Notes: generated by a model from the letters alone, not told the origin. A DNA stretch of 38,644 bases from a virus (IMGVR_UViG_2850756110_000011), one strand, 5' to 3'. Positions 17,928 through 33,902 are shown, numbered from the stretch's first letter. A program made the numbers and translations.

Positions 17928-18962
17928 TTAAGTAGCTAGTTTATAACTATCAAATTTAACAATGTTATCACTTACCAATTTATTTATTTCCATCATTCTT
18001 TTTTGTAACGGTATTAACTCGTTACGTACAAACACCAGGCTCGCCTTCTCCACATCCCCAAACCCCCCGACATTATTAGGCATAATCCCCATCATTTGCG
18101 GTGGCACACGATGCGCCGCCATCATGTCATCCCGGCTCACGTTCTTGATGTTCAGAAACTCATCCTTCGCCGCGACTTCTGACAACGGGATGATCTGAAG
18201 CCCGTCCTTTTTGCCGTTAGGCGAGTACATAAACAGATTGCGGAAGTTACCTGGTCCTTTGGCGCTTTTCATCGCATTGCGGAGGTTGTTCACATCCTCC
18301 TGGTTTTGCGCGGCATCGGTCATGTACATGATGAAGCCTGCATGACTGCCGTTAATGTAATACTATCGGCGGAACAGCGTGGCGGACTCGTTGAGCAGGG
18401 CTGACGGAATGGCAGAAAGGTAACCTGGCAGGCCGTAGATCTCTTGGTTGATGTCCGGTTCCATCAGATGAAAGATGCTTCCTTTCGTGAACTGATACGG
18501 CTGCGTGGTCATGCCGTATTGCACAAACCAGTAGGTATCCAGGTCTAATCCGCGTCGGGTGTATTTTGCCAGAGCAGGCTCAAGAGCGATGACCTCTCCG
18601 AACCGGTTTGTGCGTTTCTCCAGGTAAGCGTTACCAAATACCAGATAATCCTGCACAAAACGTGAAAAAGCCTGCTGGCTGAGCAGCGGGTGAGGGATGT
18701 AGGTACTGATCAGAATGTTGCATTTCACCGCAATTGGTGAACTGTGATGCACGGCGGCGCGGAAGGTGCGCGCCAGTCCGTCAAAACTCACTGGCGGCTC
18801 ATACCAGCGATCTGTCTGTACGCATTCCACATAGTCCAGTAGTTCACGGCGGTCCAGAACCGGAACGGGATCGCCGAAGCTGAATGCTTCGGCTGAAGTC
18901 TGGTTTTTATGCTGGGTCTGTTTCGTCGCCGCAGCGCGGTTCTTCTTACTCTTTCCCATCAA
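17928..18962 (-). pseudogene. P2 gpQ-like portal protein with an in-frame TAG stop (18363-18365) after codon 199
   Basis: Two ORF calls (18363-18962 and 17928-18329) are in the same frame: ...SATLFRR*YYINGSHAGFIMYMTDAAQNQ... Confidence 0.8.
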
Positions 18963-20725
18963 AAAATCTCCACAATATTGCTGGTATTGGCGGACTCGCC
19001 CTGCAGCGGTTCGTTAAACAGTGCGTGCATTGTTGCCCAGGCCAGATCGGCATGGCTGGCTTCTTCGCTGCGGCTGGCTTCATAGGTCGGGCGGTTGCCG
19101 CTGGCGGTGGTGGCGCGACGGATTGCCATGAATGACTGCGCAATGTCGGTGTGCCCGGCGTCAAACTCAAGACGGCGGTGGCTGATAATGTCGTAGGCCT
19201 TGAGTACCAGGGCGTTTTTAACGTTGGGGTTGTAGACAAACTCCCGGACGGCAGGAAAAAACGCTTTCACGTTCTCGTAAACCCCGTGACCAACGCCGGT
19301 TGAGTCGATGCCGATATAGGTCACGTTGTACTGTTCAGTCAGTTTTTTGATGGCGTAAGCCTGGGCGCGAAAGTCCATTCCGCGCCACTGGTGACGCTCA
19401 AGAATGCGGAACTTACCGCCTGGCACGGCTGGCGGTGCCACCACCACGCATCCGGCGCTGTCGCCGTTCTGCGTACCTTTTGCCGGGTCATAACCGATCC
19501 ACACTTCGCGCCAGCCAAACGGGCGCAGGGCCAGTGCATGAAAGTCGGTCCAGACTTCCCAGCTGTCCACCATGCACGCCTGCAATTCGCTGAGCGGGAA
19601 CACGGACGCGAGATCGTCCACGAACTCGCACATCAGCAGGTTCTGGTATTCGTCAGGGCTGTACTCCATGCGCAACTGGTCAAGGTCGAACAGGTTACAG
19701 GCGCCGCGCACCGCATCTTCCACGGTGACTATCTGGCGGTATTGCCCGTCTGCGCACAGCAGGCCGGGGGCCAGATTGCTGTGGGACAGGTCGATGTCCA
19801 CCTTGTCAGCTTTGTTGCGCCCACGGTTGAACAGCGCACCGGACCAGAACGGATAAGCACTGTGGGTCAGACTGGATGGTGTGGAAAAATAGGTCTGCCG
19901 CCATTTCTTGTGAATAGCCATACCAGAAGCCACTTTGCGTAGCTCCTGAAATTTCGGTATCCAGAAATATTCATCCAGATACAGGTTACCGTGATAACTC
20001 TGGGCAGTGCGGGCATTGGTGCCGAGGAAATACAGTGTGGCCCCGTTGGGAAGCACCATCGGATCGCCTTTCAGCTCCACCTCCACTTCTTTGGCAAAGT
20101 CGATGATGTACTGTTTGAAGACGTGGGCCTGTGCCTTACTGGCAGAAAGGAAAATCTGGTTACGTCCGGTAAGCAGGGCGTCAATCAGGGCTTCACGGGC
20201 AAAATAGAAGGTCGCGCCGATCTGGCGTGACTTCAGCAGGTTGCGGATGCGGTTGGTTTTTCCGGCTTCCCACCAGTGGCGCTGGTAGTTGAACATGGAG
20301 GAATGGAAATTTTTTTCCAGCTTCTCAATCTGGTCATCGGTGAAAACATTCTTTTCAGGCTGACGGCGTGGGCCTTTGTTGCGGTTGGCGACGTTAGGGT
20401 TTAAGTCGGCTTCGTTGCCGCCATTGTTAAACTTGCCGATCCGCGCGTGGCGCTCAGACTGGCGCGCCAGCAGGTCAATATCTTTGAAATCTTTCCCTTC
20501 TTTGTGCTCCTTCATGATGAGCTGGCAGTAGCGTGCGGCGGTGGTGAGCTGCATCTGATCCAGAGGCCCATAGTCACCCCACTTGTCGCGTTTTTTCCAG
20601 CTGTAAACGGTTGCAACTTTCTCGCCCAGCATTTCAGCAATGCGGGCTACGCGGTATCCCTGAAAGTACAGCAGCATGGCCTGCCGACGGGGATCGAGAT
20701 CTGCGGGTGTCAGTGTGGTGTTCAT
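18959..20725 (-). CDS. terminase large (ATPase) subunit, P2 gpP-like
   Basis: 588 aa, P2 gpP-sized; adjacent to and overlapping the portal gene start. Confidence 0.9.
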   Translation of the reverse strand: MNTTLTPADLDPRRQAMLLYFQGYRVARIAEMLGEKVATVYSWKKRDKWGDYGPLDQMQLTTAARYCQLIMKEHKEGKDFKDIDLLARQSERHARIGKFNNGGNEADLNPNVANRNKGPRRQPEKNVFTDDQIEKLEKNFHSSMFNYQRHWWEAGKTNRIRNLLKSRQIGATFYFAREALIDALLTGRNQIFLSASKAQAHVFKQYIIDFAKEVEVELKGDPMVLPNGATLYFLGTNARTAQSYHGNLYLDEYFWIPKFQELRKVASGMAIHKKWRQTYFSTPSSLTHSAYPFWSGALFNRGRNKADKVDIDLSHSNLAPGLLCADGQYRQIVTVEDAVRGACNLFDLDQLRMEYSPDEYQNLLMCEFVDDLASVFPLSELQACMVDSWEVWTDFHALALRPFGWREVWIGYDPAKGTQNGDSAGCVVVAPPAVPGGKFRILERHQWRGMDFRAQAYAIKKLTEQYNVTYIGIDSTGVGHGVYENVKAFFPAVREFVYNPNVKNALVLKAYDIISHRRLEFDAGHTDIAQSFMAIRRATTASGNRPTYEASRSEEASHADLAWATMHALFNEPLQGESANTSNIVEIF

Positions 20726-20771
20726 GGCACAAACCTACAGCCTTGAATGAAGGCTTTCCCCGCCTGCGGTT

Positions 20772-20789
20772 TGTGTGGTTGTCGGTACA
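20772..20789. promoter_or_regulatory. P2-type late promoter activator site (TGT-N12-ACA dyad) in the divergent P/O intergenic region
   Basis: TGTGTGGTTGTCGGTACA read directly; Ogr-family activators recognise TGT-N12-ACA upstream of P2 late promoters (established knowledge). Confidence 0.45.
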
Positions 20790-20867
20790 AATACCGCGCA
20801 TTGTTTCACTGCCCCTATCACCGCAACCATAAGGCTCCAGTAAGTTTTTTCTAACGGAGCACGGCTC

Positions 20868-21701
20868 ATGACAGTGAAAGCAAAGCGTTTTCGCATCGGG
20901 GTGGAAGGTGCCACCACCGACGGACGCGAAATCCAGCGTGAATGGCTGGAACAGATGGCAGCCAGCTATAACCCGGCGGTGTATACCGCGCTGATTAACC
21001 TTGAGCACATCAAGTCTTATCTGCCGGACAGCACCTTTAACCGCTACGGCAAGGTGACGGCGCTGTTTGCTGAAGAAATCACGGAAGGTCCGCTGGCAGG
21101 CAAGATGGCGCTGTATGCTGACGTTGAGCCAACGGAGTCCCTGGTGGAACTGGTGAAAAAAGGCCAGAAATTATTCACCTCTATGGAAGTCAGCCCGAAG
21201 TTCGCTGATACGGGCAAAGCCTACCTGGTCGGCCTGGCTGCCACTGATGACCCTGCCAGTCTGGGCACTGAAATGCTGACATTCAGCGCCAGTGCAGCCC
21301 ATAACCCGCTGGCAAACCGCAAGCAGAATCCCGCCAATCTCTTTACCGCCGCAGAGGAAACGGTGATCGAACTGGAAGAAGTCCAGGACGACAAACCGTC
21401 CCTGTTTGCCCGCGTCACGGCGCTGTTTACCAAAAAAGAGCAGTCCGATGACGCCCGGTTCTCTGATGTGCATAAGGCCGTGGAGCTGGTCGCCACTGAG
21501 CAGCAGAACCTGAGCGCACGCACCGAAAAATCCCTGTCTGAGCAGGAAGAACGCCTGTCTGAGCTGGAGACTGCCCTGCAGGCACAGCAAACCGCCTTTA
21601 ACGAACTGGTGGACAAGCTGAGTCATGAAGACAGCCGCCAGGACTACCGCCAGCGTGCAACAGGCGGTAACGCCCCCGCTGACACTCTGACCAATTGCTG
21701 A
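20868..21701 (+). CDS. capsid scaffolding protein, P2 gpO-like
   Basis: 277 aa; position and size between terminase and major capsid. Confidence 0.85.
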   Translation: MTVKAKRFRIGVEGATTDGREIQREWLEQMAASYNPAVYTALINLEHIKSYLPDSTFNRYGKVTALFAEEITEGPLAGKMALYADVEPTESLVELVKKGQKLFTSMEVSPKFADTGKAYLVGLAATDDPASLGTEMLTFSASAAHNPLANRKQNPANLFTAAEETVIELEEVQDDKPSLFARVTALFTKKEQSDDARFSDVHKAVELVATEQQNLSARTEKSLSEQEERLSELETALQAQQTAFNELVDKLSHEDSRQDYRQRATGGNAPADTLTNC

Positions 21702-21717
21702 TGGAGCACAAAACCTG

Positions 21718-22776
21718 ATGAAGAAGAATACCCGCTTTGCTTTTAACGCTTACCTGCAGCAACTGGCGCGTCTGAACGGTGTGGCAGTTGAAGAACTGTC
21801 CAGCAAGTTCACCGTAGAGCCGTCCGTGCAGCAGACGCTGGAAGACCAGATCCAGCAGTCCGCCGCTTTCCTGACTCTGATTAACGTCACGCCAGTGACT
21901 GAGCAGTCCGGTCAGCTGCTGGGGTTGGGAGTTGGCAGCACCATTGCCGGAACCACTGATACCACTGCGAAAGAGCGTGAACCTGTCGATCCGACGCTGA
22001 TGGTCGATGTGGAATATAAATGCGAGCAGACCAACTTTGACACGGTGCTGACCTACGCGAAGCTGGACCTGTGGGCGAAGTTTCAGGATTTTCAGGTGCG
22101 TATCCGTGACGCCATCGTGAAACGTCAGGCACTGGACCGCATCATGATCGGCTTTAATGGCGTGAAGCGTGCGAAAACCTCCAACCGTAGCGAAAACCCG
22201 CTGCTGCAGGATGTGAATAAAGGCTGGCTGCAGAAAATCCGTGAGGATGCACCGGATCACGTCATGGGCAGCACCACCACGGGCGGTGAAACCACACCGG
22301 GCGCAGTGAAAGTCGGGAAAGGTGGCGAATATGCCAACCTGGACGCCGTGGTGATGGATGCCGTCAATGAGCTTATCGACGTGGTCTACCAGGACGATGA
22401 CGATCTGGTGGTGATTTGCGGTCGTGAACTGCTGTCTGACAAGTATTTCCCGCTGGTCAACAAAGAGCAGGAAAACAGTGAAAAACTGGCTGCCGATATG
22501 ATCATCAGTCAGAAACGCATGGGTGGCCTGCAGGCCGTGCGTGCGCCGTTCTTCCCGCCGAATGCGCTGCTGATCACCCGTCTGGATAACCTGTCCATCT
22601 ACTGGCAGGAAGACACCCGCCGCCGTTCAGTTATCGACAACCCGAAACGTGACCGGATTGAAAACTTTGAATCCGTTAACGAAGCCTATGTGGTTGAGGA
22701 CTACCGCTGCGCCGCACTGGTGGAAAACATCCAGATTAGTGATTTCAGCGCCGCCGCAGCCGAAACCGGAGCGTAA
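21718..22776 (+). CDS. major capsid protein, P2 gpN-like
   Basis: 352 aa, P2 gpN-sized, following scaffold. Confidence 0.9.
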   Translation: MKKNTRFAFNAYLQQLARLNGVAVEELSSKFTVEPSVQQTLEDQIQQSAAFLTLINVTPVTEQSGQLLGLGVGSTIAGTTDTTAKEREPVDPTLMVDVEYKCEQTNFDTVLTYAKLDLWAKFQDFQVRIRDAIVKRQALDRIMIGFNGVKRAKTSNRSENPLLQDVNKGWLQKIREDAPDHVMGSTTTGGETTPGAVKVGKGGEYANLDAVVMDAVNELIDVVYQDDDDLVVICGRELLSDKYFPLVNKEQENSEKLAADMIISQKRMGGLQAVRAPFFPPNALLITRLDNLSIYWQEDTRRRSVIDNPKRDRIENFESVNEAYVVEDYRCAALVENIQISDFSAAAAETGA

Positions 22777-22779
22777 TCC

Positions 22780-23430
22780 ATGAGCCTGAGTCCCGCACGG
22801 CAGCATCGCCTGCGCGTTCAGGCTGAACAGGCCGCCCGTGAGGGTGGCAGTGTTCGCCACGCATCGGGCTATGACCTGATGCTGCTGCAACTGGCGGAAG
22901 ACCGCCGCCGTCTCAAGGGCGTTCAGTCCACGGTCAAAAAAGCGGAAATCAAAGTGGAGCTGCTGCCGAAGTACGCCGCCTGGGCGGAGGGTGTCCTGGC
23001 TGCCGGAGGCGCTCAACAGGATGACGTGCTGATGTACGTGATGTTGTGGCGCATTGATGCCGGAGATTATGCCGGGGCGCTGGAGATCTGGCGTCATGCC
23101 CTGCGTCATGGATGGGTGATGCCGCTGGGCAACCGCAACGTGCAGACCGTGCTGACAGAGGAAATGGCAGATGCAGCGCAGAGCGCAATGCTTGCCGCCA
23201 CCGGCTTTGATGCCGATCTGTTGCTGCAGACGCTGGAGCTGACAGACGGTCTGGATATGCCGGACCAGTCACGGGCACGTCTGCATAAAGCGATTGGCGC
23301 GGTCCTGAGTGAAAGCAATCCGGCTTCCGCCCTTAATCATCTCAACCATGCGTTACAGCTCGATCCCCGCTGTGGCGTGAAAAAAGACAAACAGCAGCTG
23401 GAGCGCAGACTGCGCAATGACAGCCGCTGA
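22780..23430 (+). CDS. terminase small (endonuclease) subunit, P2 gpM-like
   Basis: 216 aa; ...DDVLMYVMLWRIDAGDYAGALEIWRHALRHGW... resembles my recollection of P2 gpM. Confidence 0.8.
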   Translation: MSLSPARQHRLRVQAEQAAREGGSVRHASGYDLMLLQLAEDRRRLKGVQSTVKKAEIKVELLPKYAAWAEGVLAAGGAQQDDVLMYVMLWRIDAGDYAGALEIWRHALRHGWVMPLGNRNVQTVLTEEMADAAQSAMLAATGFDADLLLQTLELTDGLDMPDQSRARLHKAIGAVLSESNPASALNHLNHALQLDPRCGVKKDKQQLERRLRNDSR

Positions 23431-23525
23431 CAGAACGTGCCCCCGCGCACGGGCGGCACGGGGTGGCGAAAGGCACAGCCACATCAAAACCCCGTCCACC
23501 GCCCTTTATTTCAGGAGAAAGCAGC

Positions 23526-23972
23526 ATGAAGTTTGTTGCGCCAGAACAGGCACCGGAACAGGCGGAAATCATTAGAAATACGCCGTTCTGGCCTGATGTG
23601 GACCTGTCGGAGTTTCGCAGTGTCATGCGCACTGACGGCACGGTGACGCAGCCGCGTTTAAAGTAGGTTGCACTGTCGGCAATTTCGGAGGTTAACGCAG
23701 AGCTGTATGAATTTCGCAGACGCCAGCAGATGCTGGGGTATGCGTCGGAACAGCTGGACGGGAAAAGTGAGCGCATTCAGCACTATTTCAACGCGGTTTA
23801 CTGCTGGGCTCGCGCCATGCTCAACGAACGTTTCCAGGACTATGACGCCACGGCATCCGGTGCGAAGCGGGGCGAAGAACTGGCGGAAGCAAGCGGTGAT
23901 TTGTGGCGTGACGCCCGCTGGGCCATCAGCCGGGTGCAGGACGCGCCGCACTGCACAGTGGAGCTTATCTGA
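23526..23972 (+). pseudogene. head completion/stabilisation protein, P2 gpL-like, with an in-frame TAG stop (23664-23666) after codon 46
   Basis: MKFVAPEQ...TQPRLK*VALSAISEVNAELYEFRRRQQMLGYASEQ...; both ORF calls share one frame; RBS CAGGAGAAAGCAGCATG. Confidence 0.7.
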
Positions 23973-24175
23973 TGAAAGTGCGTGCGCATCAGTATGACAC
24001 GGTGGACGCGCTTTGCTGGCGTCATTACGGGCGCACGCAGGGTGTCACGGAGCAGGTACTGAAGGCAAATCCGGGGCTTGCCGAATACGGCCCCTTTGTA
24101 CCTCACGGGCTGCAGGTGGAGCTGCCGGACATTCCGACCACCACCACCGTGCAGACCGTCCAGCTATGGGACTGA
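23972..24175 (+). CDS. tail protein, P2 gpX-like
   Basis: 67 aa; position between L and lysis genes. Confidence 0.7.
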   Translation: MKVRAHQYDTVDALCWRHYGRTQGVTEQVLKANPGLAEYGPFVPHGLQVELPDIPTTTTVQTVQLWD

Positions 24176-24178
24176 ATT

Positions 24179-24394
24179 ATGACGCTTGAGCGAATCAGCG
24201 CCTTTATCACGTATTGCATCGCCGTCGTGCTGGCCTGGCTGGGCGATTTGTCCATCAAGGATGCCTCAACGCTGGGCGGCCTGATGATTGGTGTGCTGAT
24301 GCTGGCTATCAACTGGTACTACAAACACAAAGCCTACCAGCTTCTGCGCGACGGGCAGATCTCGCGGGAGGACTATGAATCCATCAATCGTTAA
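24179..24394 (+). CDS. holin (small two-TMD membrane protein)
   Basis: 71 aa with two hydrophobic segments and charged C-terminus; immediately upstream of and overlapping the endolysin. Confidence 0.65.
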   Translation: MTLERISAFITYCIAVVLAWLGDLSIKDASTLGGLMIGVLMLAINWYYKHKAYQLLRDGQISREDYESINR

Positions 24395-24887
24395 ACGCTG
24401 CCTTGTCGGGGCCGTGCTGGCTATTGCTGCCACGCTGCCGGGTTTTCAGCAGCTTCACACCTCCGTGGAGGGACTGAAACTGATTGCCGATTACGAAGGT
24501 TGTCGTCTGCAGCCGTATCAGTGCAGCGCGGGTGTCTGGACCGACGGTATTGGTAATACGTCGGGCGTCATTCCCGGCAAAACCATTACGGAGCGACAGG
24601 CAGCAGAAGGGCTGATCTCCAACGTGCTGCGTGTGGAGCGGGCGCTTGAAAGGTGTGTGAAGCAACAGCCGCCGCAGAAGGTGTATGACGCTGCGGTGTC
24701 GTTTGCCTTCAACGTGGGTACGGGCAATGCCTGCAGTTCCACGCTGGTGAAATTGCTCAATCAGCGGCGCTGGGCGGATGCGTGCCGACAGTTGCCGCGC
24801 TGGGTTTATGTGAAAGGTGTTTTTAATCAGGGGCTGGATAACCGCCGTGCGCGGGAGATGGCCTGGTGTTTACAGGGAGCAAACTGA
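24375..24887 (+). CDS. endolysin, lysozyme-type with N-terminal signal-anchor (SAR-like) segment
   Basis: N-terminal hydrophobic LVGAVLAIAATLPGF, then ...GLKLIADYEGCRLQPYQCSAGVWTDGIGNT... lysozyme-like core. Confidence 0.85.
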   Translation: MNPSIVKRCLVGAVLAIAATLPGFQQLHTSVEGLKLIADYEGCRLQPYQCSAGVWTDGIGNTSGVIPGKTITERQAAEGLISNVLRVERALERCVKQQPPQKVYDAAVSFAFNVGTGNACSSTLVKLLNQRRWADACRQLPRWVYVKGVFNQGLDNRRAREMAWCLQGAN

Positions 24888-24888
24888 A

Positions 24889-25266
24889 ATGAAAAAGAAA
24901 TTAATCAGCGGGCTGTTTCTGATGTTATGGATGGCGCTGTTAATCGCAGCAATAGTGTATCCGCAGGGGATTTTTCCGGTACTGGCAGCGTCCGGCGTTT
25001 GGGTAGCCTGTTTACTGACATGGGCGGTAATTCCGGTAGCACTGGCTTCGTTAATTAAGAATGGCCCGCTCTGGCAGGAGTTGAGGGCATCTTTACTGAA
25101 GACAATTACCCGAAAAGAAAACGTATTTATCAGCTGGGTGATACGATTGCTGATTGTCGTCAGTCTCGCCTGGACGGGGTGGGCCATTACCCTGGTCTTT
25201 TATCTGCTGACCGTTATTGCCTTCTGGATCACCCGTAATCAGATGGCGCAACAGGTAGCCGCATGA
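24889..25266 (+). CDS. lysis-associated membrane protein (LysA-like, about 4 TMD)
   Basis: MKKKLISGLFLMLWMALLIAAIVYPQGIFPVLAASGVWVACLLTW...; internal start of the 149-aa ORF call. Confidence 0.55.
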   Translation: MKKKLISGLFLMLWMALLIAAIVYPQGIFPVLAASGVWVACLLTWAVIPVALASLIKNGPLWQELRASLLKTITRKENVFISWVIRLLIVVSLAWTGWAITLVFYLLTVIAFWITRNQMAQQVAA

Positions 25267-25691
25267 ACCGGTTGCTGCTGGTTGTGCTGGCGTTATTATT
25301 GGCGGCGCTGGGCTGGCAGACGTGGCGGCTGGCTGATGCCAGCCAGACCATCAGCACGCAGGCAGACGAGCTGCAGAGCAAAAGCCAGGCACTGGCAAAG
25401 AGCAACAGCCAGCTTATCAGCCTGTCCATTCTGACTGAAACCAATAACCGGGAGCAGGCGCGGCTCTATGCCGAAGCAGAACAGACCAGTGTACTGCTGA
25501 GACAACGACAACGCCGGATTGAGGAACTGAAACGTGAGAACGAGGATTTACGTCGCTGGGCTGATACTCCTTTGCCTGCTGACATTATCCGGCTGCGGGA
25601 ACGTCCGGCACTCACCGGAGGTGCAGCTTACCGTCAGTGGTTGTCCGCGAGTGACGCCGTGTCGGCTGGAGCAGGCAGCGCCGCGCACTAA
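25263..25691 (+). CDS. i-spanin (Rz/LysB-like)
   Basis: N-terminal TMD then coiled-coil rich sequence; overlaps preceding gene stop. Confidence 0.65.
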   Translation: MNRLLLVVLALLLAALGWQTWRLADASQTISTQADELQSKSQALAKSNSQLISLSILTETNNREQARLYAEAEQTSVLLRQRQRRIEELKRENEDLRRWADTPLPADIIRLRERPALTGGAAYRQWLSASDAVSAGAGSAAH

Positions 25692-25824
25692 CGGTGATCT
25701 GAATGCGTTGCTGGATGAAACGGAGGCCGCCTGGGCGGTCTGTGCAGACAAAGTGGACATGATTATTGCGTGTCAGGAGCGAAATAGTGAACAAACCACA
25801 ATCCCTGCGCCACGCCCTCAATAA
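25534..25824 (+). CDS. o-spanin (Rz1/LysC-like lipoprotein) in an alternative frame overlapping the i-spanin
   Basis: Signal peptide with lipobox LTLSGC, proline-rich; embedded/overlapping arrangement typical of spanin pairs. Confidence 0.5.
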   Translation: MRTRIYVAGLILLCLLTLSGCGNVRHSPEVQLTVSGCPRVTPCRLEQAAPRTNGDLNALLDETEAAWAVCADKVDMIIACQERNSEQTTIPAPRPQ

Positions 25825-26218
25825 AGCAGTGCCTTATGTCCGTAATAACCCGGACAAACTGCATCTGTTTGTGGATAACGGTTCGCTGGTTGCCTCCGGG
25901 GCTAGCTCCATGTCATGGGAGTACCGCTACACCCTGAACGTGGTGATTGAAGATTTCAGCGGCGACCAGAATCTGCTGATGGCCCCGGTTTTGCTGTGGC
26001 TGCGGGATAACCAGCCCGATGCGATCAATAACCCGGCGTTACGGGAAAAGCTATTCACCTTTGAGGTGGATATTCTGCGCAACGATGTCTGTGATATCAG
26101 CCTTAACCTGCAACTGACGGAGCGTGTGCTGGTCAGCACTGACGGCAGTGTGTCGAACGTTGAAGCGGTAGCGGAACCTGATGAACCTGAAGAAATGTGG
26201 ACGGTGAAACGTGGCTGA
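25787..26218 (+). CDS. tail completion protein, P2 gpR-like (GTG start)
   Basis: VNKPQSLRHALNKAVPYVRNNPDKLHLFVDNGS... with RBS AGGAG 7 nt upstream. Confidence 0.7.
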   Translation: MNKPQSLRHALNKAVPYVRNNPDKLHLFVDNGSLVASGASSMSWEYRYTLNVVIEDFSGDQNLLMAPVLLWLRDNQPDAINNPALREKLFTFEVDILRNDVCDISLNLQLTERVLVSTDGSVSNVEAVAEPDEPEEMWTVKRG

Positions 26219-26612
26219 ATTGCAGAAGGTGGACGACTGGCTGAGTGCATTATTGGCGAATCTGGAGCCAGCCGCAAGAAGCCGCATGATGCGCCAGCTG
26301 GCGCAGGAACTGCGCCGGACACAGCAGCAGAACATCAGGATGCAGCGCAATCCAGATGGCAGCAGTTATGAGCCGCGCAGGGTAACAGCACGCAGCAAAA
26401 AGGGGCGCATCAAACGTCAGATGTTTACAAAGCTGCGCACCACAAAATACCTGAAAACTGCAGCCAGCGCCGATTCTGCCAGCGTACAGTTTGAAGGTAG
26501 GGTGCAGCGCATTGCCCGTATTCACCATTACGGCTTGAGTGATCGCGTCAGTCGAAAAGGTATTTATACCATCTATGCGAAAAGGCAGTTATTAGGTTTT
26601 AATGTCCGGTAA
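26211..26612 (+). pseudogene. tail completion protein, P2 gpS-like, 3' end truncated by IS1 copy 2
   Basis: ORF runs into the IS1 left end at 26608 and terminates on IS1-encoded codons. Confidence 0.7.
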
Positions 26613-26662
26613 TGCTGCCAACTTACTGATTTAGTGTATGATGGTGATTTTAAGGTGCTTGC

Positions 26663-26938
26663 GTGGCTTCCATTTCCATCAGATGTCCTTCCTGCTCCGC
26701 TATTGAAGGCGTGGTGCGTAACGGCAAAAGCACTGCCGGACATCAGCGCTATCTCTGCTCTCATTGCCGTAAAACATGGCAACTACAGTTCACTTACACC
26801 GCCTCTCAGCCCGGTACGCACCAGAAAATCATTGATATGGCCATGAATGGCGTCGGATGTCGCGCCAGTGCACGCATTATGGGCGTTGGCCTCAACACGG
26901 TTTTACGTCACTTAAAAAACTCAGGCCGCAGTCGGTAA
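26663..26938 (+). CDS. insA: IS1 InsA
   Basis: [40 protein letters not shown]... Confidence 0.9.
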
Positions 26939-27360
26939 CCTCGCGCATACAACCGGGCAGTGATGTGATTGTCTGCGCTGAAATGGACGAACAGTGGGGC
27001 TACGTCGGTGCTAAATCACGTCAGCGCTGGCTGTTTTACGCGTATGACAGGATACGGAGGACGGTTGTGGCGCACGTCTTCGGTGAACGCACTCTGGCCA
27101 CACTGGAGCGTCTTCTGAGCCTGCTGTCGGCCTTTGAGGTCGTGGTATGGATGACGGATGGCTGGCCGCTGTATGAATCACGCCTGAAGGGAAAGCTGCA
27201 CGTTATCAGCAAGCGTTACACTCAGCGCATTGAGCGACATAATCTGAATCTGAGACAACATCTGGCAAGGCTGGGACGGAAGTCACTGTCGTTCTCAAAA
27301 TCGGTGGAGCTGCATGACAAGGTCATCGGGCATTATCTGAACATAAAACACTATCAGTAA
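26937..27360 (+). CDS. insB: IS1 InsB' frame (expressed as InsAB' by -1 frameshift)
   Basis: ...[28 protein letters not shown]...[40 protein letters not shown]. Confidence 0.8.
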
Positions 27361-27370
27361 GTTGGCAGCA

Positions 27371-27907
27371 TTACCATGCAGCCCTCACAATATAGTTAAA
27401 AGCGACATTTCGTGGGCGTGTTTCATTCGCACCTGCAGGTTTAGTCGTTGCCGCAACAACACCACCCTCTGTAATAGCCGGGTTGGGAATTGGGTAATTA
27501 TCGAAGTCAATGGCCGGAGACAGGGGCGTGATTTGTTTTAAAATCGTGGTGCCTGTAAAACTTTCCAGAGTCTGGTCGTTAGTTCGTGAAGTCCAGATTC
27601 CCCAATAGTGGTTATGACTGACAATCGCACCGTCCTGAAGCGTTAATAATCCCCTTCCGTTATCCACTCCACGTCCGTCATCCCAGCCACGAATAAACTC
27701 ACCGCGTAAATCAGGCAATTTATTTGTCGGGTAAGCCTTTGCCAGTTCCGGGTATTCTTCAGCAGAAAAAGCCGCACCATTGCATTTCAGCCAGCCTGTC
27801 GGCGGAGTGGCTGAAGGCCACGGAACAGGCACACCAACAGGTAATGCAGAGCCTTCTCCCAAACCAACGTTTAAGAAAATGCAGAGATAATGGCTAACTG
27901 GCATCAT
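27371..27907 (-). CDS. phage tail-fibre variable C-terminal segment with tail-collar domain; orphan alternative segment of an invertible tail-fibre locus (5' limit arbitrary)
   Basis: ...PVGVPVPWPSATPPTGWLKCNGAAFSAEEYPELAKAY...LPDLRGEFIRGWDDGRG...ETRPRNVAFNYIVRAAW; stop codon partly supplied by the IS1 end. Confidence 0.7.
   Translation of the reverse strand: MMPVSHYLCIFLNVGLGEGSALPVGVPVPWPSATPPTGWLKCNGAAFSAEEYPELAKAYPTNKLPDLRGEFIRGWDDGRGVDNGRGLLTLQDGAIVSHNHYWGIWTSRTNDQTLESFTGTTILKQITPLSPAIDFDNYPIPNPAITEGGVVAATTKPAGANETRPRNVAFNYIVRAAW
27854..27879. other. gix/hix-like recombination site for the adjacent invertase
   Basis: TTCTCCCAAACCAACGTTTAAGAAAA resembles my recollection of the 26-bp gix/hix sites (TTCCTGTAAACCGAGGTTTTGGATAA). 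Confidence 0.5.
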
Positions 27908-27934
27908 CCCCGGTTTTTATTCAGGGGATTGATC

Positions 27935-28501
27935 ATGCTTATTGGCTATGTACGCGTGTCAACAAATGACCAGAACACCGATTTGCAACGTAATGCACTG
28001 AACTGCGCGGGATGTGAGCGGATTTTTGAGGATAAAATCAGTGGCACTAAGCCCGACAGACCGGGGCTTAAAAAACTGCTCAGGACACTATCGGCAGGAG
28101 ACACGCTGGTTGTCTGGAAGCTGGACAGACTGGGACGCAGTATGCGGCATCTTGTTACGCTGATAGAAGAGTTGCGCCAGCGTGGTGTGAATTTCCGAAG
28201 CCTGACTGACAGTATTGATACCAGTACCCCAATGGGCCGTTTCTTTTTTCACGTCATGGGGGCTCTGGCTGAAATGGAACGTGAACTGATAGTTGAACGT
28301 ACCAGAGCAGGGCTGGCTGCAGCTCGTGCCAAAGGCAGAGTAGGTGGACTCCGTCCTAAGTTGACCACCGAACAGTGGGCACAGATTGGACGTTTACTCG
28401 AGGCCGGAGAATCAAGACAGCGTATTGCACTGATTTTTGATGTGGGCGTTTCTACCATTTATAGAAAATTTCCGGCGAATGAGAGCAATGAATCGCCCTG
28501 A
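27935..28501 (+). CDS. serine recombinase, DNA invertase of the Gin/Hin/Pin/Cin family
   Basis: MLIGYVRVSTNDQNTDLQRNAL...RLGRSMRHLVTLIEEL...GVSTIYRKF; catalytic Ser in the YVRVST motif, C-terminal HTH. Confidence 0.9.
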   Translation: MLIGYVRVSTNDQNTDLQRNALNCAGCERIFEDKISGTKPDRPGLKKLLRTLSAGDTLVVWKLDRLGRSMRHLVTLIEELRQRGVNFRSLTDSIDTSTPMGRFFFHVMGALAEMERELIVERTRAGLAAARAKGRVGGLRPKLTTEQWAQIGRLLEAGESRQRIALIFDVGVSTIYRKFPANESNESP

Positions 28502-28549
28502 GTCAGTATTATTTTGATTTTTCCTGTAAGCGGACAAATACCGTCATTT

Positions 28550-28567
28550 TGTGTGAATAACGACACA
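28550..28567. promoter_or_regulatory. P2-type late promoter activator site (TGT-N12-ACA) upstream of the sheath gene
   Basis: TGTGTGAATAACGACACA read directly, about 75 bp upstream of the FI start. Confidence 0.45.
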
Positions 28568-28643
28568 ACTGCGCTTAGCTGTTTGTCAGGCACAATCACT
28601 TCAACATAGGGCGAAGCCTAATCCAATCAGGAGGTTCGCCACT

Positions 28644-29816
28644 ATGGCTCAGGATTACCACCACGGGGTGCGCGTTGTTGAAGTCAACGAAGGCACCCGA
28701 TCCATTACCACGGTGAGCACCGCCATCGTGGGTATGGTCTGCACGGGCGATGATGCCGATGCAAAAATGTTTCCTCTTAATAAACCTGTGCTGATCACTG
28801 ATGTGCTGACCGCCAGCGGTAAAGCGGGTGAGTCTGGCACGCTGGCCCGTTCGCTGGATGCCATCGCTGACCAGGCAAAACCCGTGACCGTTGTTGTGCG
28901 TGTGCCGCAGGGTGAAACGGAAGAAGAAACCACAACCAATATCATTGGCGCAGTGACCGCCGAGGGTAAAAAAACAGGTATGAAAGCCCTGTTATCTGCC
29001 CAGTCACAGCTCGGCGTTAAACCGCGCATTCTCGGCGTGCCAGGTCACGACACGAAGGCGGTAGCTACTGAGTTGCTGAGCGTGGCGCAAAGCCTGCGTG
29101 GATTTGCTTACCTGTCAGCGTATGGTTGCAAGACGGTGCAGGAAGCAATCACTTACCGTGAAAACTTCAGTCAGCGTGAAGGAATGCTGATCTGGCCCGA
29201 CTTTACTGGCTGGGACACGGTGCTGAATGCCGAAGCAACGGCTTATGCCACCGCCCGTGCGCTCGGTCTGCGCGCTAAAATTGATGAGCAGACCGGATGG
29301 CACAAAAGCCTGTCCAACGTGGGCGTGAACGGTGTCACCGGAATTTCTGCTGATGTGTTCTGGGATCTGCAGAACCCGGCAACCGATGCAGGTCTGCTTA
29401 ACCAGAACGATATCACCACGCTTATCCGCAAAGACGGTTTCCGCTTCTGGGGTTCCCGCTGTCTGAGCGATGATCCGCTCTTTGCCTTCGAAAACTACAC
29501 CCGCACGGCGCAGGTGCTGATGGACACGATGGCAGAAGCGCACATGTGGGCGGTGGACAAACCGCTGAACCCGTCGCTGGCCCGCGACATTATCGAAGGT
29601 ATCCGCGCCAAAATGCGTAGCCTGGTCAGTCAGGGCTATCTCATTGGTGGTGATTGCTGGCTGGACGAGTCGGTGAACGATAAAGACACGCTGAAAGCCG
29701 GGAAACTCACCATCGATTACGACTACACGCCAGTGCCGCCACTTGAAAACCTGATGCTGCGTCAGCGCATCACCGATCAGTACCTGGTGAATTTCTCCAG
29801 CCAGGTCAGCGCGTAA
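28644..29816 (+). CDS. contractile tail sheath protein, P2 gpFI-like
   Basis: 390 aa, P2 FI-sized, followed by tube gene. Confidence 0.9.
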
Positions 29817-29825
29817 GGGGACAAC

Positions 29826-30341
29826 ATGGCTTTACCACGCAAATTAAAACACCTGAACCTGTTTAACGACGGGAACAACTGGCAGGGGATCGTTGAGTCG
29901 CTGACGCTGCCGAAATTCACCCGCAAATATGAGAAGTATCGCGGCGGCGGTATGCCCGGAGCGGTGGATGTGGATCTGGGACTGGATGACAGTGCACTGG
30001 ATACAGAATTTTCCATTGGTGGTACTGAACTGCTGCTGTTTAAGCAGATGGGCAAAGCCACGGTGGATGGCATCCAGCTGCGCTTTACCGGCTCTATTCA
30101 GCGTGATGATACCGGGGAAGTGCAGGCCGTGGAGCTTGTGGTGCGTGGACGTCACAAAGAAGTAGATTCCGGCGAGTGGAAGACGGGCGAAAGCAACACT
30201 ACCAAAGTGACCAGTACCAACAGCTACGCGAAGCTGACCATCAATGGTGAGGTGCTCTATGAAGTGGACCTGATCAACATGGTGGAAATTGTGGACGGTG
30301 TGGACCTGATGGAAGCGCACCGCAACGCCCTCGGCCTCTGA
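29826..30341 (+). CDS. tail tube protein, P2 gpFII-like
   Basis: 171 aa. Confidence 0.9.
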   Translation: MALPRKLKHLNLFNDGNNWQGIVESLTLPKFTRKYEKYRGGGMPGAVDVDLGLDDSALDTEFSIGGTELLLFKQMGKATVDGIQLRFTGSIQRDDTGEVQAVELVVRGRHKEVDSGEWKTGESNTTKVTSTNSYAKLTINGEVLYEVDLINMVEIVDGVDLMEAHRNALGL

Positions 30342-30395
30342 TGTATCTGAACGGCGCGGAATGCCGCGCCAGAACCTAATTTACAGGACAACAAA

Positions 30396-30698
30396 ATGAG
30401 CGATAAGCAGACTGAAAAGACCATTCAACTGGATACTCCCATCATGCGCGGTAAAACAGAAATTACCGAAATTGTGTTGCGTAAACCGCAGTCCGGTGCG
30501 CTGCGCGGCACACGCCTGCAGGCCATTATGGATATGGATGTGAACGCGATGATGACCGTGATCCCCCGCATCTCCAGTCCGGCACTGACTGCACAGGAAA
30601 TTGCAGAGATGGACCCGGCAGATCTCACTGCCATGTCGGTTGAGGTTGTCACTTTTTTGTTGAAGAAGTCGGTGCTTGCCGGTTTACCGACAGCCTGA
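30396..30698 (+). CDS. tail assembly chaperone, P2 gpE-like
   Basis: 100 aa ending ...VVTFLLKKSVLAGLPTA; contains slippery TTTTTTG. Confidence 0.8.
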   Translation: MSDKQTEKTIQLDTPIMRGKTEITEIVLRKPQSGALRGTRLQAIMDMDVNAMMTVIPRISSPALTAQEIAEMDPADLTAMSVEVVTFLLKKSVLAGLPTA

Positions 30699-30832
30699 CG
30701 GTTGACGATCTGGTGGCTGATATCGCCACCATCTTTCACTGGCCGCCATCCGTTACTGACGTTATGCCGCTGACCGAAGTGCTGGAATGGCGGGATAAAG
30801 CGATTCAGAGAAGCGGGGCCAGCCATGAGTGA
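30396..30832 (+). CDS. tail assembly chaperone extended form (gpE+E'-like) by programmed -1 frameshift at TTTTTTG (30653-30659)
   Basis: -1 frame after the heptamer is open for 58 codons (FFVEEVGACRFTDSLTVDDLVADIATIFHWPP...WRDKAIQRSGASHE) and ends overlapping the tape-measure start. Confidence 0.6.
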
Positions 30833-33800
30833 CAATAACCTGCGTCTGCAGGTGATTCTTAATGCGGTTGACAAACTCACCCGCCCATTTCGATCCGCGC
30901 AGGCCAGTTCAAGAGAACTGGCTGCTGCTGTCAAAAAATCCCGCGATGCAATAAAGCAGCTTGATCAGGCCGGGAGCAGTCTGGACAGCTTCCGAAAGCT
31001 GCAGGCAGAAAATCAGAAATTAGGCGACAGGCTGAACTATGCCCGCCAGCGTGCAAATTTGCTCAGTCAGGAACTGGGAGCGATGGGGCCGCCTTCGCAA
31101 CGTCAGGTTGTTGCTCTGGGCCGTCAACGGCTGGCTGTTCAGCGCCTGGAAGAACGCCAGAAAAAGCTGCAGCAGCAGACGGCGCTTGTGCGTGCAGAAC
31201 TTTATCGTGCTGGTATTTCAGCTAATGATGGCGCCAGTGCGACGGCCCGCATTACCCGTGAAACGATGCGTTATAACAGGCAGCTTTCTGAGCAGGAAGC
31301 GAGGTTACGACGTGTCGGGGAGCAACAGCGAAAAATGCACGCCGCCCGGGGGCTTACGCCAGGCGTCTTGAGGTAAGGGATCGTATTGCAGGTGCCGGAG
31401 CCACCACCACGGCTGCAGGGCTGGCAATGGGCGCACCAGTGATGGCGGCAGTAAAAAGCTATACCAGCATGGAAGATGCCATGAAAGGTGTGGCAAAGCA
31501 GGTCAATGGTCTGCGTGACGATAATGGCAACCGCACTGCGCGTTTTTACGAAATGCAGGGTGCCATCAAGGCTGCCAGCGAACAGTTGCCGATGGAAAAC
31601 GGTGCTGTGGACTTCGCCGCACTGGTTGAAGGTGGTGCGCGCATGAACGTCGCAAACCCTGACGACAGCTGGGAAGACCAGAAACGTGACCTGCTGGCCT
31701 TCGCCAGCACGGCGGCAAAGGCGGCAACAGCCTTTGAACTGCCAGCGGATGAACTGTCAGAAAGTCTGGGGAAAATCGCCCAGCTCTACAAAATCCCTAC
31801 CCGCAATATTGAGCAGCTCGGTGATGCGCTGAACTATCTGGATGATAACGCCATGTCGAAAGGGGCGGACATCATTGATGTCATGCAACGCCTGGGCGGT
31901 GTGGCTGACCGTCTGGATTATCGTAAAGCGGCGGCGCTGGGTTCCACCTTCCTGACACTCGGCGCTGCGCCTGAGGTTGCAGCCAGTGCAGCAAACGCGA
32001 TGGTGCGTGAATTGTCCATTGCCACCATGCAAAGCAAGAGTTTCTTTGAAGGGATGAATCTGCTGAAACTCAATCCAGAAGTGATTGAAAAGCAGATGAC
32101 GAAGGATGCGATGGGAACTATCCAGCGGGTGCTGGAGAAGGTGAATGCGCTGCCACAGGATAAGCGCCTGTCTGCCATGACCATGTTGTTTGGTAAAGAG
32201 TTTGGCGATGACGCAGCGAAACTGGCAAACAACCTGCCGGAACTTCAGCGCCAGTTAAAACTGACTGCGGGCAATGATGCGCTCGGTTCCATGCAGAAAG
32301 AATCCGACATCAACAAGGATTCACTTTCTGCTCAGTGGTTGCTGGTCAAAACCGGAGCACAGAACACCTTCAGCAGCCTGGGGGAAACGCTGCGCCAGCC
32401 GCTGATGGATATTCTGTACACGGTGAAAAGCGTCACGGGGGCGTTGCGTCGCTGGGTGGAAGCTAACCCGGAACTGACGGGCACTCTGATGAAAGTAGCC
32501 GCTGTGGTAGCTGCCGTTACCGTGGGCCTCGGCACCTTAGAGGTGGCGCTGGCTGCAGTGCTGGGGCCGCTGGCAGTCATCCGTCTGGGATTCTCTGTGC
32601 TGGGTATCAAAACGTTACCTTCCGTTACGGCAGCAGTAACCCGAACCAGCAACGCGTTGTCCTGGCTGGCTGGCGCACCACTGGCACTGCTGCGACGCGG
32701 GCTTGCTTCATCGGGCAACGCTGCAGGTTTACTTACTGCGCCGTTGTCGTCTTTGCGCCGCACGGCATCACTGACGGGAAATGTCCTGAAAACTGTAGCA
32801 GGTGCGCCGGTTGCACTTTTGCGGGTCTGGATTATCCGGTTTACGTGCGGTTGCTGTGATGTTTATGAATCCACTGGCGGTACTACGCGGCGGACTGGCT
32901 GCCACAGGCACGGTGCTGCGTATGCTCGCATCCGGTCCACTGGCGATGCTGCGCGTTGCCCTGTATGCCGTCTCTGGTCTGTTAGGTGCTCTGCTCAGTC
33001 TGATAGGTCTTGTGGTTACTGCACTGGCGGGTGTGGCGCTGGTTGTCTGGAAATACTGGCAGCCCATCACCACATTTCTCGGTGGCGTGGTGGAAGGATT
33101 CAAAGCGGCGGCAGGTCCTGTCAGTGCCGCGTTCGAACCGCTTAAGCCTGTGTTCCAGTGGATTGGCGACAAAGTACAGGCGCTGTGGGGCTGGTTTACT
33201 GATCTGCTGACGCCCGTTAAGTCGACCTCTGCCGAACTGCAGAGTGCAGCGGCAATGGGGCGACGATTCGGGGAGGCTCTGGCGGAAGGGCTGAATATGG
33301 TCATGCATCCGCTGGACTCCCTGAAATCCGGCGTTTCCTGGTTGCTGGAGAAACTTGGCATTGTCAGTAAAGAGGCCGCAAAGGCGAAACTGCCGGAAAG
33401 CGTGACGCGTCAGCAACCTGCGACGGTGAATGCAGACGGTAAAGTGATGATGCCATCGGGTGGTTTTCCGTCATGGGGATATGGCTTTGCGGGGATGTAT
33501 GACAGCGGCGGGTATATCCCGCGCGGGCAGTTTGGCATCGTCGGTGAAAACGGGCCGGAAATTGTTAACGGCCCGGCAAATGTGACCAGCCGGAGAAATA
33601 CAGCTGCACTGGCTGCCGTTGTTGCCGGAATGATGGGTGTTGCTGCTACGCCAGCAGAGCTTCCACCGTTGCACCCTTTGGCACTTCCCGCGAAAGGCGG
33701 TGAAGCGATGGTGAGTCGTGCAGCCACTGTGCCGCCCGTTCAACGGATTGAGGCACCGATGCAGATCATCATTCAAACGCAGCCAGGACAAAGTGCGCAG

Positions 33801-33902
33801 GATATTGCGCGGAAGGTGGCCCGCCAGCTTGATGAACGTGAACGCAGGCTGAAGGCAAAAGCCAGGAGTAACTACAGCGATCAGGGGGGATACGACGCAT
33901 GA
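30825..33902 (+). pseudogene. tail tape measure protein (gpT-like), split into three ORFs by a -1 frameshift near 31330 and a +1 frameshift near 32820
   Basis: ORFs 30825-31376, 31427-33145 and 32802-33902 are each tape-measure-like (coiled coil, then GAPLALLR-type repeats); frames differ by -1 then +1. Confidence 0.8.

Follow-up and report, generated by a model that had tools for sequence, protein, structure and literature searches.

IS1-promoted adjacent deletions were reportedly described by Reif and Saedler in 1975 in the gal region of Escherichia coli, and deletions of this kind are explained as intramolecular replicative transposition of the element. IS1 prefers AT-rich targets. In P2-like phages, the switch that alternates tail-fibre segments is comparable to the G segment and Gin of phage Mu, the C segment and Cin of P1 and the P segment and Pin of e14. 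Adjacent deletions and recombination between IS copies are both accepted causes of IS copies that lack target duplications (PMC11708052). The chromosomes of Shigella carry 229-348 IS copies, amongst which IS1 is the most abundant (PMC7373316).

Here we describe an IS1-associated loss of 5,984 bp from an already defective P2-like prophage of Shigella. The prophage lies in a 38.6-kb stretch of DNA (IMGVR_UViG_2850756110_000011), which was analysed in full and is referred to below as the window.

Results

The window carries the remnant of a P2-like prophage

Judged by its gene content and order, the window holds a P2-like (Peduoviridae) prophage integrated beside ybjL in a Shigella chromosome, and represents a remnant and not a complete member of the family. 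The head genes, the lysis genes, R, a shortened S (S') and FI-FII-E-T-U-D-ogr are all present in order, with 95-99.9% identity to relatives. The late-gene synteny of the Peduoviridae is nevertheless incomplete, as its V-W-J-I-H-G module is absent.

Other lesions are visible elsewhere in the prophage. In L, codon 47 is a nonsense codon and 18 bp have been deleted; T is broken up into three ORFs here but is intact in some sister genomes. At 13530, inside gene A, an IS66-family element interrupts the early region; it is part of a nest of IS elements of about 10 kb. A second, partial IS1 is found at 8920-9568, in the same orientation as the complete copy at 26608-27375.

A block of 5,984 bp is missing between the two ends of an IS1

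The closest intact relative is a prophage of E. coli UPEC-245U (L004, NZ_CP049845.1), which is 99.6-99.9% identical to the window on both flanks. Window positions 16549-26607 correspond to 1-10077 of L004 (99.56% identity) and positions 27854-31390 to 16540-20077 (99.86% identity), while positions 27376-27870 correspond to 15189-14695 on the opposite strand (99.6% identity), because the invertible segment of L004 sits in the other orientation. L004 was flipped in silico between its crossover sites (14686-14711 and 16540-16565), after which window 27376-31390 aligned in one piece to 16062-20077 with 99.85% identity. The two arms end at 10077 and resume at 16062, and the gap is thus 10078-16061, exactly 5,984 bp. 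Against the flipped L004 the alignment breaks at 26607/26608 and 27375/27376, which are the exact ends of an IS1; as expected of an IS-adjacent deletion, both breakpoints coincide with IS ends and the DNA is uninterrupted in a near-identical reference. At the time of the deletion, the invertible segment lay in the opposite orientation to that seen in L004.

According to the RefSeq annotation of L004, the missing DNA starts with the final 47 bp of S and a DUF5677 moron on the minus strand, followed by V, W, J, I and the constant part of H, in which the left crossover site lies. It also takes in the variable H segment that is not retained and both tail-fibre assembly genes (G and G'). Searches for V, W, J, I, the constant part of H and G found none of them anywhere in the 38.6-kb window. 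The DUF5677 moron gave no match with PADLOC.

A preliminary description of the locus, made from the sequence alone, had proposed an IS1-associated deletion of the V-W-J-I-H-G block, to be checked against intact P2-like prophages. Both the deletion, with its junctions at the IS ends, and the absence of V-W-J-I-H-G were confirmed by the alignment, but the lost block proved larger than claimed and takes in, in addition, 47 bp of S, DUF5677, the second assembly gene, one variable H segment and the left crossover site. The idea was to be abandoned, according to the same description, if related intact phages were naturally without genes separating S from the tail-fibre/invertase region. We examined Escherichia phage 500465-1, three E. 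coli prophages and a sister copy in Shigella boydii, and the S-to-invertase genes are present in every one of them, in the order S-(moron)-V-W-J-I-H-G-G'-Hv'-invertase-FI. An intact prophage is also found at the same ybjL site in NZ_AP023286.1 (L002).

The DUF5677 gene served as a marker for the block. Among the 26 contigs read, the full-length protein lies beside an intact S in all ten places shown, and in nine of these V-W-J-I-H follow S and DUF5677. These data bear on whether the block was moved and not lost, through an IS1-mediated inversion or transposition of DUF5677-V-W-J-I-H-G to another part of the chromosome, where it would show a junction of IS1 with AATCTATTGAG. IS elements have rearranged the genomes of Shigella heavily (PMC7373316), and the search for the block covered the window and, indirectly, the DUF5677 marker. 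Relocation is nonetheless very unlikely. The block is absent from the window, none of the ten places with DUF5677 beside S came from an assembly in which the junction was seen, and the Shigella-named DUF5677 forms listed are those of S. boydii, which belong to the undeleted sister prophage. Moreover, an inversion would leave two inverted IS1 copies, whereas the other IS1 of the window is direct and truncated.

The IS1 element is complete and lacks a target duplication

The features around the two junctions are collected in Table 1.

Table 1. Coordinates of the IS1 copy and of the features on either side of it in the window
Feature	Position	Strand	Remarks
Truncated gpS (tail completion / virion morphogenesis), native part	26211-26607	+	TIGR01635
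Left 9-bp flank TTAATGTCC	26599-26607	.	No repeat on right side
Complete IS1 (IS1F type), 768 bp	26608-27375	+	Terminal repeats, insA/insB frames, InsAB' profile match
IS1 left terminal inverted repeat GGTAATGCTGCCAACTTACTGAT	26608-26630	+	
insA, 91 aa, GTG start	26663-26938	+	
insB reading frame, 167 aa ORF	26857-27360	+	Open
Programmed -1 frameshift motif TTAAAAAAC (A6C), insA to insB'	26912-26920	+	
IS1 right terminal inverted repeat	27353-27375	-	Same as left repeat over 23 bp
Right 9-bp flank ATGCAGCCC	27376-27384	.	
Orphan alternative tail-fibre variable segment Hv' (Collar domain)	27376-27907	-	177/177 codons kept
hix/gix-like crossover site, 26 bp, TTCTCCCAAACCAACGTTTAAGAAAA	27854-27879	+	Last one left in window
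Serine DNA invertase, 188 aa	27935-28501	+	Full-length ORF, no internal stop

Membership of the IS1 family was judged by a length of about 768 bp, terminal inverted repeats of about 23 bp and insA/insB' joined by a -1 frameshift at A6C, and the element at 26608-27375 agrees with the family in its length, its terminal repeats and its frameshifted InsAB'. The terminal inverted repeats match perfectly across 23 bp. InsAB' (232 aa), reconstructed via the frameshift, has zero internal stops and scored 243.5 bits against NCBIfam NF033558 'IS1 family transposase', an equivalog profile with a cut-off of 100 bits. The whole element is 99.2% identical to the one annotated IS1F in LC567836.

The right repeat reads GCTGCC where GACTCC is usual. 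No exact match to the terminal 70 bp of the element was present among 71,211 IS1 matches in complete E. coli genomes; the closest records are two plasmids with one differing position each, and the one examined has the same right-repeat variant as the window IS1. A right end identical to the left over 23 bp is a mildly unusual detail, rare among E. coli IS1 copies.

A simple insertion of IS1 is marked by a target duplication of 9 bp (occasionally 8-10 bp), and no 9-bp duplication surrounds the copy at 26608-27375. The flanks TTAATGTCC and ATGCAGCCC are identical at only four of nine positions and hence do not represent a target duplication. Flanks of this kind are to be expected following a deletion or recombination between IS copies, and they were not counted against the identification of the element as IS1.

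The left junction truncates gpS and the right junction orphans a tail-fibre segment

At the left junction, the called gpS ORF (26211-26612) consists of 132 native codons followed by an Arg codon and a stop codon contributed by IS1, while the intact allele has 147 codons. The P2 gpS family is described by the profiles TIGR01635 and PF05069, and the ORF scored 113 bits against TIGR01635 (cut-off 37.65 bits) over profile positions 2-128 of 144 only, as a C-terminally truncated member of the family. The DNA within 50 bp of this junction on either side has a GC content of 28%, in contrast to 40% at the right junction.

At the right junction, the IS abuts the native stop codon of the kept variable segment, Hv', whose first base is represented by its complement at 27376. 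The called Hv' ORF runs from 27371 to 27907 on the minus strand, with one Trp codon and a stop codon supplied by IS1, and its product matches the Pfam Collar domain with 58 bits. Its counterpart in intact relatives is a 177-codon 'phage tail protein' beside the invertase, and the segment aligns with 9001-9532 of L002 and with 15189-14695 of L004, the latter being the 3' end of the expressed H gene there. The constant part of H, with which Hv' would be fused, is gone from the window. The junctions therefore bear out the remaining points of the preliminary description, which had an IS1 without target duplication cutting gpS short on one side and abutting the C-terminus of a tail-fibre variable segment on the other; the whole of Hv' is in fact kept, with its stop codon at the IS1.

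In relatives the crossover sites are 26-27 nt long and form an inverted pair about 1.83-1.85 kb apart. The partner site, which lies inside H, had no match anywhere in the 38.6-kb window. A switch of the Hin/Gin/Cin type consists of an invertase and two inverted sites around alternative segments, and here only one site is left, so the invertible segment is frozen. The invertase has no invertible substrate left in cis. Its product in a 100% identical locus (L010) matches the Pfam families Resolvase and HTH_7, its counterparts in relatives are annotated as DNA invertase or recombinase, and beyond it the window continues in order with FI, FII, E, T, U, D, ogr and chromosomal ybjL. The window prophage can neither form particles nor invert.

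We also considered whether the invertase had itself mediated the deletion. This was rejected because the right breakpoint at 27376 lies 478 bp away from the crossover site at 27854.

The junction pair is fixed in a Shigella lineage

Over a length of 20.4 kb, the window and CP026805.1 show 100% identity. The S::IS1 fusion protein occurs on 267 contigs and is named by NCBI as Shigella dysenteriae or MULTISPECIES Shigella, and the Hv'+Trp protein is named MULTISPECIES Shigella. The contigs with this fusion are mostly short ones that stop at the IS, or, in the case of Hv'+Trp, were read for the other junction, but both junctions were found together on every long contig read for either fusion protein. 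The IS1 occupies the same two junctions in 8/8 long assemblies fetched, with 0-1 nucleotide differences within the IS; six of these are single-record CP-series accessions of 4.6-4.8 Mb, and there is also a 240-kb contig. The junction was found in none of the complete E. coli genomes and in none of the deposited phages, and the exact left junction had no match among GTDB species-representative genomes. Because identical junctions occur in eight independent assemblies, the pair is not an assembly artefact, and it represents one old event that has been fixed in a Shigella lineage.

These results also dispose of the idea that nothing was deleted, either because the lineage is naturally without genes between S and the invertase or because an assembly collapsed across IS1 copies. 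Such a reading is scarcely credible given that the block is present in all intact relatives, including those of 99.6-99.9% identity, that gpS is visibly truncated, and that the eight assemblies agree.

A sister prophage in S. boydii retains the block

Two proteins were predicted from the sequence, a 147-aa gpS and a 337-aa DUF5677::IS1 fusion, and both were then found, under the name Shigella boydii. The intact 147-aa gpS of S. boydii is the window's own allele. In S. boydii CP026766.1 (L042) the left part of the prophage reads AAA-ATPase, HNH, portal, P ... R, intact S, IS1 and DUF5677', and the right part continues with V, W, J, I, H, G, G', Hv', invertase and FI, so that the block is kept. 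The DNA of this sister prophage is 99.5-99.9% identical to that of the window. Draft genomes of S. boydii have the invertible segment in both orientations (L024 vs L025).

The IS1 of the sister prophage is a simple insertion in the 3' end of DUF5677, flanked by a perfect 9-bp duplication, CAATTGAGT. As this copy duplicated its target, the IS type normally does so, and the missing duplication in the window is therefore meaningful. The left ends of the two IS1 copies are separated by 70 bp, and the left junction of the window is 61 bp from the right end of the sister IS1. The two copies have the same orientation and differ at four of 768 positions, three of which cluster in the right terminal repeat (CAG vs AGT, IS positions 759-761). 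From its right end the sister IS1 could be taken for a different isoform, a view that is weakened by the full comparison with its 4/768 differences.

The sister prophage also allows the deletion to be placed in time. The portal gene of the window has a nonsense mutation at codon 199 and no indel, leaving pieces of 133 and 198 aa, and the portal of the S. boydii sister shows the same split into 133 and 198 aa. This common lesion indicates that both prophages descend from one already defective ancestor, and thus the phage was not inactivated by the 6-kb loss. As the nonsense mutation in the portal gene preceded the deletion, the latter is a matter of neutral decay, not of domestication. Lineage-specific lesions on top of shared ones are what neutral decay predicts.

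In view of this shared ancestry, the window IS1 might be the S. boydii CAATTGAGT insertion itself, following two adjacent deletions, one reaching 70 bp to the left into S and the other about 5.9 kb to the right. The copies do share their orientation, with left ends only 70 bp apart, their 4/768 differences are close to the level at which the prophage DNA around them has diverged, and the portal nonsense mutation points to a common prophage ancestor. However, the cluster in the right repeat, with three of the four differences, resembles a different donor copy and not point mutation, two separate deletions would be required, and the IS1 would have to predate the split of the lineages. We thus regard a common origin of the two IS1 copies as unlikely.

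Discussion

The route we prefer, and to which we give an even chance, is an adjacent deletion driven by a single IS1, with the junction in S as the primary insertion. IS1 would first have entered S at its AT-rich 3' end, duplicating 9 bp of the target in the normal way, and such a simple insertion would read S' joined to IS1 and, on the other side, IS1 joined to TTAATGTCC-AATCTATTG. In a second step, transposase-driven intramolecular replicative transposition would have joined the right IS end to the G'/Hv' boundary, in the manner of a classical 'adjacent deletion'. The intervening DNA and the right-hand copy of the duplication would then have left as a non-replicating circle, with the IS staying behind. 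The deletion has removed the baseplate and tail-fibre genes and orphaned the invertase and one variable segment. A single IS with the S site struck first is favoured because the junction in S is AT-rich, because independent IS1 hits lie nearby and because fewer events are needed. The independent insertions in the region of S and the S-V spacer are those of S. boydii and of E. coli strain 64, the latter in the S-V spacer. The base composition and these neighbouring hits suggest that the S junction is the older of the two. Among the contigs read, no genome had IS1 at one junction only together with a duplication.

A less probable explanation, though one that retains considerable weight, is that S, in its 3' end, and the G'/Hv' boundary each received an independent IS1 insertion of the same orientation, and that RecA-dependent recombination between the two copies deleted the 6-kb interval. 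The surviving hybrid IS1 would take its left flank from one insertion and its right flank from the other, and the end product, one IS with exact ends and unrelated 9-bp flanks, would be identical to that observed. There is no shortage of partners for such an exchange, with hundreds of IS copies per Shigella chromosome and IS1 the most numerous (PMC7373316), and recombination between IS copies figures among the frequent causes given for the lack of duplications (PMC11708052). The region has, in addition, been struck by IS1 repeatedly, and the window contains the partial copy of the same orientation at 8920-9568. Against this, three events within 6 kb would be required, two insertions and a recombination, and the contigs read included no genome that had one of the insertions by itself or the two together. 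The IS1 also shows no obvious chimeric pattern, an argument that is weak as it concerns 3-4 variable sites only. Since the routes through one IS and through two lead to the same end product, one IS with unrelated flanks, the sequence cannot separate them.

Duplication-free IS movement has been proposed (PMC11708052), and it is conceivable, although improbable, that an IS1 with symmetric ends inserted and deleted in one step without duplicating its target, and that the orphan invertase may be active in trans on other segments. If true, a one-step event of this kind would replace the two steps of insertion and adjacent deletion set out above for the preferred route.

By whichever route, the locus is a textbook IS1-associated deletion and an instance of ordinary IS-driven decay that is already visible in public annotations. 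The deletion accounts for the inability of this prophage to make tails, and also for the odd lengths with which hundreds of Shigella assemblies annotate gpS and the 'phage tail protein' of 178 aa. The pair of junctions, S'::IS1 and IS1::Hv', is clean and fixed in the lineage, and could be used as a phylogenetic marker. Together, the S. boydii sister and the window lineage form a natural before-and-after pair for the study of prophage decay.

In its gene order the window prophage resembles Escherichia phage 500465-1 (Wadgaonvirus, Peduoviridae), which has Q P O N M L X holin lysozyme lysA lysB/C R S ... FI FII E E' T U D ogr, and it shares with prophages of this type a serine invertase beside a minus-strand alternative variable segment of H, with a 26-bp hix/gix-like site. 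In contrast to them, however, the window is without V, W, J, I, the constant part of H, both assembly genes and the second crossover site, its portal, L and T genes are pseudogenes, and its early region is severed by an IS66-family element.

The locus can likewise be compared with the IS-driven degradation of Shigella genomes (PMC7373316). The host is a Shigella, IS1 is the dominant expanded IS, and IS insertions occur here together with a deletion flanked by an IS and with pseudogenes formed by point mutation, a pattern that is fixed in a lineage. While that study covers chromosomal metabolic genes and population dynamics, the present case concerns a cryptic prophage, and no adaptive meaning is evident.

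Finally, the window differs from the classical IS1 adjacent deletions in that its event is a natural and fixed one, known only as an end product, and in that its IS1 copy has an uncommon right repeat, identical to the left. In all other respects compared it is like them, as the IS is retained, the deletion starts from the exact end of the IS, there is no duplication and several kb have been lost.

Order of events in the decay of the prophage

The portal gene Q is interrupted by a nonsense codon at position 199, introduced without an indel, which divides it into two ORFs of 133 and 199 aa in the window. An identical split of Q was found in L042, the S. boydii sister prophage that has not undergone the IS1-associated deletion, and this shared lesion shows that the prophage was already defective before the deletion took place.

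Other lesions were found in head-completion gene L and tape-measure gene T. Gene L carries a stop at codon 47 together with an 18-bp deletion, while in the S. boydii sister it is intact (154 aa), and the L lesion is therefore specific to the lineage of the window. In the window, gene T survives as three separate ORFs of 183, 572 and 366 aa; two sister Shigella loci (L007 and L012) retain an intact T of 1025 aa, and in other sister Shigella loci the gene is broken at places different from those in the window. Thus decay went on after the deletion.

The serine invertase ORF remains intact in the window, but it is accompanied by a single surviving crossover site of 26 bp, so that the switch is frozen. 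Draft S. boydii genomes show the sister prophage in both orientations of the segment, which implies that the invertase is active there.

IS1 insertions and a separate large deletion in related prophages

Related prophages carry independent IS1 insertions in or beside the 3' end of S or in the S-V spacer. In S. boydii the insertion has duplicated 9 bp, CAATTGAGT, and cuts off the final codons of DUF5677. The site is AT-rich and looks like a recurrent target of IS1.

The right terminal repeat of the window's IS1 reads GGTAATGCTGCC, like its left repeat, the usual right repeat being GGTAATGACTCC, as in E. coli copies, in the element annotated IS1F and in the S. boydii copy. Complete E. coli genomes gave 71,211 IS1 matches, none of which reproduces the terminal 70 bp of the window's IS1 exactly. 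The nearest records were two plasmids, each different at one position, and the one of them that was inspected has the right-repeat variant of the window.

A second remnant of the same P2-like prophage type also lies at ybjL (L039). The genes from V to the greater part of D are missing there, DUF5677 is fused directly to a fragment of gpD, and further gaps occur in the head and early regions. Its large deletion is distinct from, and independent of, that of the window.

Features of the window and of related prophages
Feature	Location	Strand	Details
Lambdoid-type fragments	window 548-3282		YdaT-like protein, cI-type HTH repressor, Rha/Ash-family regulator
Insertion-sequence nest	window 3400-13529		~10 kb
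IS3-family element, split	window 3406-3714; 7777-8595		orfA; orfB
IS66-family elements, two	window about 3766-6155; 11160-13492		
1,530-bp copies, two	window 6178-7706; 9567-11096		mutually inverted
Partial IS1	window 8920-9568		IS positions 1-649
Prophage early region	window 13530-15300		
Two-gene cassette	window 15306-17820	+	gene 1, AAA_21/AAA_15 ATPase, 549 aa, ORF intact; gene 2, HNH endonuclease by annotation in relatives, 293 aa, ORF intact
Portal gene Q	window 17928-18962	-	
Gene L	window 23526-23972	+	
IS1 right terminal repeat	window 27353-27375		
Serine invertase ORF and crossover site	window 27854-28501		
Gene T	window 30825-33902	+	
IS1 insertion, L042	10459-11244		S. boydii CP026766.1
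IS1 insertion, L003	7132-7899		E. coli strain 64
Second remnant, L039	2188-4467		GCA_965182615.1, CBCYKJ010000002.1

Left end, early region and ATPase/HNH cassette

Pieces of an unrelated lambdoid-type prophage occupy the left end of the window, followed by the nest of insertion sequences. The matching record annotates a pair of IS110-like ISSso6 elements, which probably correspond to the inverted 1,530-bp copies. One of these copies cuts off the partial IS1.

The prophage early region stops within replication gene A at 13530, where the breakpoint adjoins an IS66-family element. The integrase, the repressor and the remainder of A are absent from the window and are present in an E. coli relative (L005). 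The two-gene cassette, which separates the replication region from the portal gene, gives hits to PDC-M01, a candidate defence system in PADLOC (A, 185 bits; B, 115 bits), and weaker ones to Septu PtuA.
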